Origin: Chrysomallon squamiferum
Lineage: Eukaryota; Animalia; Mollusca
Assembly (NCBI GenBank): GCA_012295275.1
Contig: CM022678.1
Coordinates: 248,001 to 312,000 of the forward strand
DNA: 64,000 bases
Direction of reading: 5' to 3'
Position 1 is the first letter of the stretch, and each line of letters opens with the position of its first letter. A model generated the notes under the pieces. That model was not told the origin of the DNA, did no database searches, and saw nothing but the letters and a program-made list of their open reading frames with translations. Position numbers and translations under genes: made by a program. Positions 30,081-30,197 of the stretch are shown here, piece after piece.

Positions 30081-30197
30081 ATACTGGAAGAACTCAACCA
30101 GTGGTAGAGCACAGTGTCAATATCAGCACAGTTCAGAATTACCAGGATCTGTCTAATTGTAGGAATGTTGTGTTTGGAAATCAAATTATTAAAACTA
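30081..30197 (+). CDS. Gene A 117-nt phase-1 exon encoding a RHIM-like motif (TGRTQPVVEHSVNISTVQNYQDLSNCRNVVFGNQIIKT)
   Basis: ctctgtttacaaag|ATACTGG...AAACTA|gtaagt; open, symmetric and in frame with both neighbouring exons. Confidence 0.72.

Follow-up and report, generated by a model that had tools for sequence, protein, structure and literature searches.

The window, by which we mean the whole 64-kb stretch of DNA analysed here, is AT-rich and contains two inverted paralogues, gene A on the forward strand (about 29.0-34.6 kb) and gene B on the reverse strand (about 56.4-45 kb). The two genes are 80-92% identical, introns included, and are made up of the following parts.

29727..29790, + strand: first coding exon of gene A, from the ATG to a phase-1 donor, Ser/Thr-rich, 21 codons; RNA joints 29169>29717 and 29790>30081; homologous to the first exon of gene B
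30081..30197, + strand: motif exon of gene A, 117 nt, phase 1-1; both ends are joined in RNA of paralogues or alleles
30143..30184, + strand: RHIM/cRHIM-like 14-mer QDLSNCRNVVFGNQ, with VNISTVQNY directly before it
30831..30863, + strand: microexon of gene A, 33 nt, phase 1-1; loose RNA ends before 31167
31169..33429, + strand: large exon of gene A, first frame, with the nSTAND3 NTPase, helical and winged-helix parts and the first ankyrin repeats; stop after the frameshift
33350..33370 (near 33355), + strand: 8 extra bases in gene A, relative to gene B and to the RNA contigs; loose RNA ends at 33354 and 33366
33336..34625, + strand: rest of the gene A ankyrin repeats, out of frame with the first ones
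56291..56435, - strand: first coding exon of gene B, ATG at 56435, phase-1 donor
55590..55676, - strand: intact motif exon of gene B, 87 nt, phase 1-1, VKISDCGNVLIGDN; splicing predicted, acceptor and donor align with those of gene A
54292..54420, - strand: decayed duplicate of the motif exon in gene B (motif at 54384-54343), with an in-frame TGA just upstream of the motif, the AG lost at the homologous acceptor and a phase-0 donor
53636..53668, - strand: microexon of gene B, 33 nt
50475..53349, - strand: nSTAND3 and ankyrin exon of gene B up to the insertion, by profile matches
47622..50474, no strand: inverted-repeat element in the ankyrin repeats of gene B, 2.85 kb, arms of 27 nt and 595 nt, 99-100% complementary
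45417..47621, - strand: rest of the gene B ankyrin array; stops and frameshifts beyond 45417

Upstream of gene A, about ten units of 2.47 kb, 84-98% alike, follow one another in tandem over positions 5100-29200, and each has a copy of the non-coding exon that is spliced onto gene A (joint 29169>29717, in at least one RNA run). The nine upstream copies of that exon are each followed by a GT donor-like site, and the array could represent alternative 5' exons or plain duplication. Between the two genes, a 200-N assembly gap (40631-40830) separates a microsatellite from 45-bp repeats, and the end of the window (62920-64000) consists of 51 copies of a 22-bp satellite.

The first-pass annotation had placed a symmetric, in-frame exon of 117 nt at 30081-30197 (+), and our analysis agrees with this. 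The exon is preceded by a pyrimidine tract and an AG, is followed by GTAAGT and has phase 1-1; only one of its frames is open, the alternative two being ruled out by stops in both. When 29727-29790, 30081-30197, 30831-30863 and 31169 onward are joined, a single open frame results. This first frame of gene A has 825 codons, its N-terminus ahead of the NTPase exon measures 71 residues, and the 14-mer lies 16 residues ahead of the start of the frame in the large exon. The microexon probably forms the beginning of the helix ahead of the NTPase, since relatives end in a similar F-x-N-I/M-x word and a helix is predicted at 72-89 in the model of the relative P0040. By eye, the VNISTVQNY stretch before the 14-mer looks like a repeat of the first nine residues of the 14-mer.

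The RNA data were assembled contigs from four runs, all of one study, aligned at 85% likeness. Among the joints listed, 29790>30081 (GT..AG) is present in at least two of the four runs and 29169>29717 (GT..AG) in at least one; among those listed, at least two runs have loose contig ends with microexon-like letters before 31167. Thus, of the junctions proposed by the first-pass annotation, the one that opens the motif exon was found as predicted and the microexon is reflected in these loose ends, but the second joint is 30192>30831, with five other letters, in at least one of the four runs among the joints listed. The contigs that cover the gene A joints carry several differences from the window; the splicing seen is therefore that of close paralogues or other alleles. 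At positions 30147 and 30149, most of the RNA depth has other letters, which change D-L to A-V and retain the aliphatic position. Note that in run X1 140 of the 861 aligned contigs are at least 99% alike to the window; run X5 (share 0.22) contributed no evidence. We conclude that the motif exon is real.

Downstream of these small exons, the nSTAND3 profile (PF20720) scores 91.2 bits in gene A and 91.6 bits in gene B, against a Pfam cut-off of 27.2, and the ankyrin matches are above the Pfam cut-offs in both genes. The NTPase of gene A has a Walker A (GSPGSGKT) and a Walker B (VVLIDD) motif. In the predicted structure of the core (pLDDT 94.3, with 52 sequences in the alignment), the P-loop domain is followed by helical and winged-helix parts. 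In a fold search with this model the nearest structures were MalT, Avs5 (PDB 9jap), NRC1, SAMD9 and Apaf-1, at TM scores of 0.36-0.48, together with NLRPs and with other AAA+ matches intermixed. As modelled, the core has a STAND fold.

The nSTAND3-ankyrin receptor described by the first-pass annotation is not intact in the assembly: gene A is frameshifted near 33355, gene B is interrupted by the 2.85-kb inverted-repeat element, and a complete C-terminal repeat sensor in one frame is absent in both. The 8 extra bases near 33355 put most of the gene A ankyrin repeats in another frame. At best, gene A as assembled would encode a protein whose ankyrin sensor is cut short, and the role of working receptor probably falls to its expressed paralogues or to other alleles. 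The element in gene B is apparently a young non-autonomous DNA transposon, perhaps Sola2-like; it has GGG..CCC ends and an apparent 4-bp target duplication. The ankyrin units of gene B at 45555-47511 have periods of 237, 432 and 468 nt with 78-85% matches, a high internal conservation as in the fast-evolving fungal NLR sensors.

There is about an even chance that genes A and B, as part of a birth-and-death family, are in decay and no longer give working receptors, a possibility that concerns the locus only and is compatible with any reading of the motif. It is supported by the 8-base insertion in gene A, which is missing from the RNA contigs, by the transposon, stops and frameshifts in gene B, and by the differences between the two NTPases, which are mostly amino-acid changing (53 of 330 codons, against 17 silent). 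However, the splice sites, NTPase motifs and 825-codon first frame of gene A are intact, the 140 contigs of run X1 are nearly identical to the window, and gene A may still yield a product with a shortened sensor or have an intact second allele.

The intact copy of the motif exon in gene B, at 55676-55590, reads KVKISDCGNVLIGDN. The copy at 54292-54420 can make no in-frame join to the microexon because of its phase-0 donor. It was this decayed duplicate, with its TGA and lost acceptor, that had been cited as the syntenic and conserved partner of the gene A exon; the intact counterpart is the copy at 55676-55590, and the conservation between A and B had been argued from a dead exon copy. Similarly, VNIS and SxCRN had been read as one kept motif, but in gene A VNIS lies nine residues before its register position in gene B, so the two do not form one aligned motif in gene A. 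Judging from its copies, the gene B motif exon has duplicated in tandem. By eye, 54549-54645 (-) looks like a third copy, further decayed and limited to the first half of the exon; it has a GTAAGT donor but no acceptor.

The three window copies of the motif were compared with the RHIM and cRHIM signalling motifs. Deep mutagenesis of RIPK1/RIPK3, in the part of that report available, identifies V450, I452, V458 and V460 as the nucleation positions of RIPK3, with G461 next (10.64898/2026.02.19.706818). The same spacing is found in V-I-V-I-G of gene B and Q-L-V-F-G of gene A, whose full registers are V-x-I-x5-V-x-I-G and Q-x-L-x5-V-x-F-G, respectively. Both gene B copies have aliphatic residues at register positions 0, 2, 8 and 10 and a Gly at 11, whereas gene A has three of the four aliphatic positions, with Q at the first, and matches the register from L onward. 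The intact gene B copy is thus closer to the RIPK register than gene A is, and the decayed copy fits the pattern best. The cores of the three window copies are VVFG, VLIG and FILG. According to the accessible parts of the insect and crustacean papers (PMC10268257, PMC9387487, PMC13506858), the cRHIM core is VxxG with only the Gly fixed; a VxxG-type core with its Gly is present in gene A and in the intact gene B copy, a weak likeness given that VxxG is at chance level in the N-termini of relatives.

The mammalian tetrad (V/I)Q(V/I/L/C)G is absent from the three window copies and occurs in 1 of the 79 N-termini of relatives described below. The Pfam RHIM model, presumably PF12721, had been proposed as a check of the motif and matched none of the three window peptides and none of 18 aligned motifs, in a run without positive control. 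The RHIM/cRHIM likeness claimed for the exon is supported in part, by the aliphatic positions (full in B, three of four in A) and the VxxG core, but not by the Pfam model or the mammalian tetrad. A PDB sequence search gave no match of the motif to solved RHIM structures, the best match of the motif profile being an autotransporter (E 1.2, not significant), and an ESM Atlas look-up of the motif returned nothing usable. Complex prediction with four copies of the exon peptide scored 0.02, which is evidence neither way. In the P0040 model the motif region appears unstructured (pLDDT<50, in a shallow part of the alignment) and lies apart from the NTPase fold.

Next, we considered how the motif has changed between the copies. 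Between gene A and each of the gene B copies, 9 of the 14 motif codons change the residue, 16-19 of the 42 bases differ and 0-1 codons differ by silent changes only. In the adjacent introns 15 of 93 and 10 of 59 aligned bases differ between A and B, the motif being the faster of the two (Fisher p 0.008 and 0.003), and in the NTPase 53 of 330 codons change the residue. At the same time, the Ser, Cys, Asn and Gly of the motif have identical codons in the A and B copies, and positions 2, 8 and 10 stay hydrophobic. This pattern, seen across three copies of which one is dead, fits a diversifying pressure on a fixed motif scaffold, and an older exon duplication with later homogenisation of the flanks is a possible source of the divergence.

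Gene A belongs to a large mollusc nSTAND3-ANK family. The best database relatives are from Gigantopelta aegis (37-52% identity) and, among the best matches, Haliotis, which makes a gastropod the likely host. A phmmer search gave 1185 representatives at E<=0.001, the best 150 of which were analysed. The set comprised 153 proteins; the NTPase could be located in 150, and the 79 with at least 30 residues before it served as the N-terminus test set. In the other 71 of the 150 (best 150 of 1185) fewer than 30 residues precede the NTPase, from which we infer that small first exons may often be missing from the gene models. In 7 of 20 hand-picked relatives a Pfam caspase, Death, DED, CARD, SAM or HEPN_DZIP3 domain stands before nSTAND3 (E<=0.0005), and 24 of the 79 N-termini match a folded-domain probe, the probes being those Pfam domains plus three unverified stretches. 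The presence of folded domains in the N-terminal slot of relatives implies that this slot is a swappable effector position; the earlier placing of the motif in the effector position of a STAND-repeat family is thus supported by the domains that occupy the same slot. In P0017, P0043, P0045, P0083, P0101 and P0109, all of them nSTAND3 proteins of molluscs, the N-terminus is of the caspase, TIR-like (by eye), SAM, HEPN_DZIP3 or CARD type, and Haliotis rufescens has a caspase-nSTAND3-ANK fusion.

A short h-x-h-x5-h-x-h-G motif occurs in a minority of the relatives, in both snails and bivalves (Gigantopelta, Haliotis, Potamilus, Sinanodonta, Argopecten, Mizuhopecten and Pecten). Clear carriers are P0015 (Gigantopelta, LTVKDCRSVQFG), P0073 (Potamilus, LTINNSSGVEIG), P0120 (Argopecten), P0060 (Sinanodonta) and P0003, while P0142 and P0135 have a folded domain and the motif together. 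A matrix made from the three window copies only matched 11 of the 79 N-termini at p<0.05, against 3.95 expected (binomial p 0.002), and 8 of 56, against 2.8, after the removal of 23 near-duplicates (binomial p 0.006). As controls, 12 column-permuted matrices gave 0-6 matches and downstream regions gave 1 of 70 and 3 of 78. Note that at least two of the 11 matches, P0082 and P0117, are false, as they lie inside HEPN domains.

The pattern h+5 polar+h-x-h-G, which was one of six and had been tuned with the data in view, was present in 5 of the 44 domain-free N-termini (0.7 in shuffles) and in 1 of the 24 domain-bearing ones. A shorter core was found in 11 of 79 N-termini versus 5.5 (39 of 2000 shuffles). 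The full register derived from the literature was not clearly enriched, either in the whole set (4 of 79 versus 1.5; 127 of 2000 shuffles) or in the domain-free N-termini (2 of 44 versus 0.6); the form with no Gly and the mammalian tetrad were at chance in the relatives' N-termini, as was VxxG alone (11 of 44 domain-free N-termini versus 11.8). The held-out enrichment test was weak (5 of 43 versus 2.15, p about 0.06), and an unseeded motif search of the N-termini, with a best score of 4.63 against a maximum of 4.47 in 52 shuffled sets, returned a mixture and not this motif. Most of the domain-free relatives show either a different short beta-prone word or no such word at all. As judged by these counts, the enrichment among relatives is modest, and the motif is real but confined to a minority. 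The conservation in mollusc homologues that the first-pass annotation proposed to test is partial: the motif recurs in some snail and bivalve relatives, but with a literature register not clearly enriched and a held-out p at the border.

Other N-terminal words shared by domain-free relatives are of the G-M-x-G-G-x-A-x-N, V-I-N-x-I and V-N-x-N-I-T-S-P types, possibly further motif classes; their carriers were grouped as P0031, P0037, P0038 and P0042; P0006, P0012, P0024 and P0035; and P0054 and P0138. A six-frame scan of the window (49,349 14-mers) for a partner or effector with a matching motif put only the three copies of the receptor exon on top. The matrix behind this ranking came from 15 relatives, which makes the first place of the window copies circular, since these relatives were picked for their likeness; the scan shows only that there is no fourth copy in the window.

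Taken together, the sequence and the analogy with known systems make it somewhat probable that the exon encodes an N-terminal signalling tag of the cRHIM/RHIM type on a mollusc nSTAND3-ankyrin protein, which would seed cross-beta assembly upon oligomerisation of the ATPase. It is rather unlikely, but deserves weight, that this is instead a functional short linear motif of a non-amyloid kind, which could be a beta-hairpin or strand that docks on a folded partner protein, or else a site of regulation or of redox chemistry (Cys). The pattern is kept while the residues change, the RHIM profile is unmatched and several different short N-terminal words exist in the family, as a docking motif would have it; however, the two-strand spacing with its Gly equals the RIPK nucleation positions, amyloid signalling motifs typically share its N/S/T/V/I-rich composition and disordered surroundings, and a Cys is found in only 8 of the 18 aligned motifs. 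It seems slightly less likely still that the exon is a low-constraint linker whose RHIM likeness is chance in N/S/V/I-rich, AT-biased coding and whose likeness between A and B is recent common descent. In favour of this reading, the identity of the two genes extends to their introns, the decayed B copy is the one that best fits the pattern, and the a-priori patterns are at or near chance with a borderline held-out enrichment, but the motif diverges faster than its neutral flanks with the pattern retained, matches to the window-seeded matrix are in excess among distant relatives, bivalves too, and the motif stands in the effector slot.

If the exon is a cRHIM/RHIM-type tag, STAND biology suggests that a ligand on the ankyrin array would release the NTPase, which would then oligomerise and gather several motifs. 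By analogy with fungal NWD2/HET-S, the PP-NLRs and insect Imd, the gathered motifs would template a partner with a matching motif, such as an adaptor of the RIPK or Imd kind or a death effector, and NF-kB signalling or cell death could follow. There is reportedly a published study of an oyster RHIM protein. RIPK1/RIPK3 homologues arise in Mollusca according to the available part of a review, and with the oyster protein this makes such partners plausible.

The architecture had been presented as undescribed, which is not so in general. In the amphioxus RHIM proteins the RHIM replaces death-fold domains, and one of them, BF82280, has been likened to the fungal motif-NACHT-repeat receptors (Kajava et al. 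2014, PMC4262963, in its accessible text). As with gene A, BF82280 is an animal STAND protein with the RHIM in the usual place of a death-fold and C-terminal repeats, there as a prediction only; unlike gene A, it is a chordate NACHT protein found by the RHIM profile, whereas gene A joins nSTAND3 to ankyrin in a mollusc and its motif is missed by Pfam. Since BF82280 is in print, the general architecture is less new than first suggested.

Fungal NWD2/HET-S and PNT1/HELLP (PP motif) and the bacterial BASS-NLRs share with gene A a short N-terminal amyloid motif, a STAND core and a repeat sensor, which includes ANK; in contrast, in the accessible text (PMC12881547), they have an adjacent effector gene with the matching motif, a tested mechanism and NACHT or NB-ARC domains, and the 64-kb window has no such neighbour. 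Insect and crustacean Imd, PGRP-LC/LE and SRB2 have the VxxG-type core with only the Gly fixed (PMC10268257, PMC9387487, PMC13506858, each in the part available), LHFG of Drosophila Imd resembling VVFG of gene A and VHIG of shrimp Imd resembling VHVG of P0003, but these proteins are membrane receptors and adaptors and not STAND ATPases. In the RHIMs of mammalian RIPK1/RIPK3, the four aliphatic residues at the nucleation positions and the Gly after them are spaced as in the window (10.64898/2026.02.19.706818, available part); the window motifs, unlike them, have no core Gln and no kinase, and gene A lacks the first aliphatic position. Finally, bacterial nSTAND3 proteins are, in the accessible text of 10.1101/2025.07.08.663546, the Avs5 immune receptors (Sir2-nSTAND3-repeat), which like gene A have the PF20720 NTPase and a three-part receptor layout and unlike it a folded Sir2 enzyme as effector and a TPR-type sensor.

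A literature search, with subscription journals largely outside it, found no publication on mollusc nSTAND3-ANK proteins or on the motif on them; the Kajava 2014 supplement may list more species. What is new here is the nSTAND3-ANK and mollusc setting of a RHIM-STAND-repeat layout known from fungi, bacteria and, by sequence, amphioxus. More tentatively, and at something short of even confidence, we propose that an expanded family of ankyrin receptors of the Avs5 type (nSTAND3) has been overlooked in molluscs, and that its fast-diversifying amyloid motif, in place of the death-fold, would come from a cassette-like symmetric exon and be wired to RHIM adaptors. Such a family would be the animal counterpart of the fungal and bacterial amyloid-NLRs, missed as its exons are tiny.

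Direct amyloid seeding by an NLR-like receptor has been tested in fungi and bacteria, while in animals the amphioxus example, at the level of sequence, is the only one that we found. NACHT-based surveys of mollusc NLRs omit the nSTAND3-ANK genes. An expressed, multi-copy mollusc family offers natural pairs, of motif against death-fold, of several motif variants, and of a symmetric exon that duplicates and decays, and such pairs could test whether animals use the amyloid switch and what drives the turnover of the motif.
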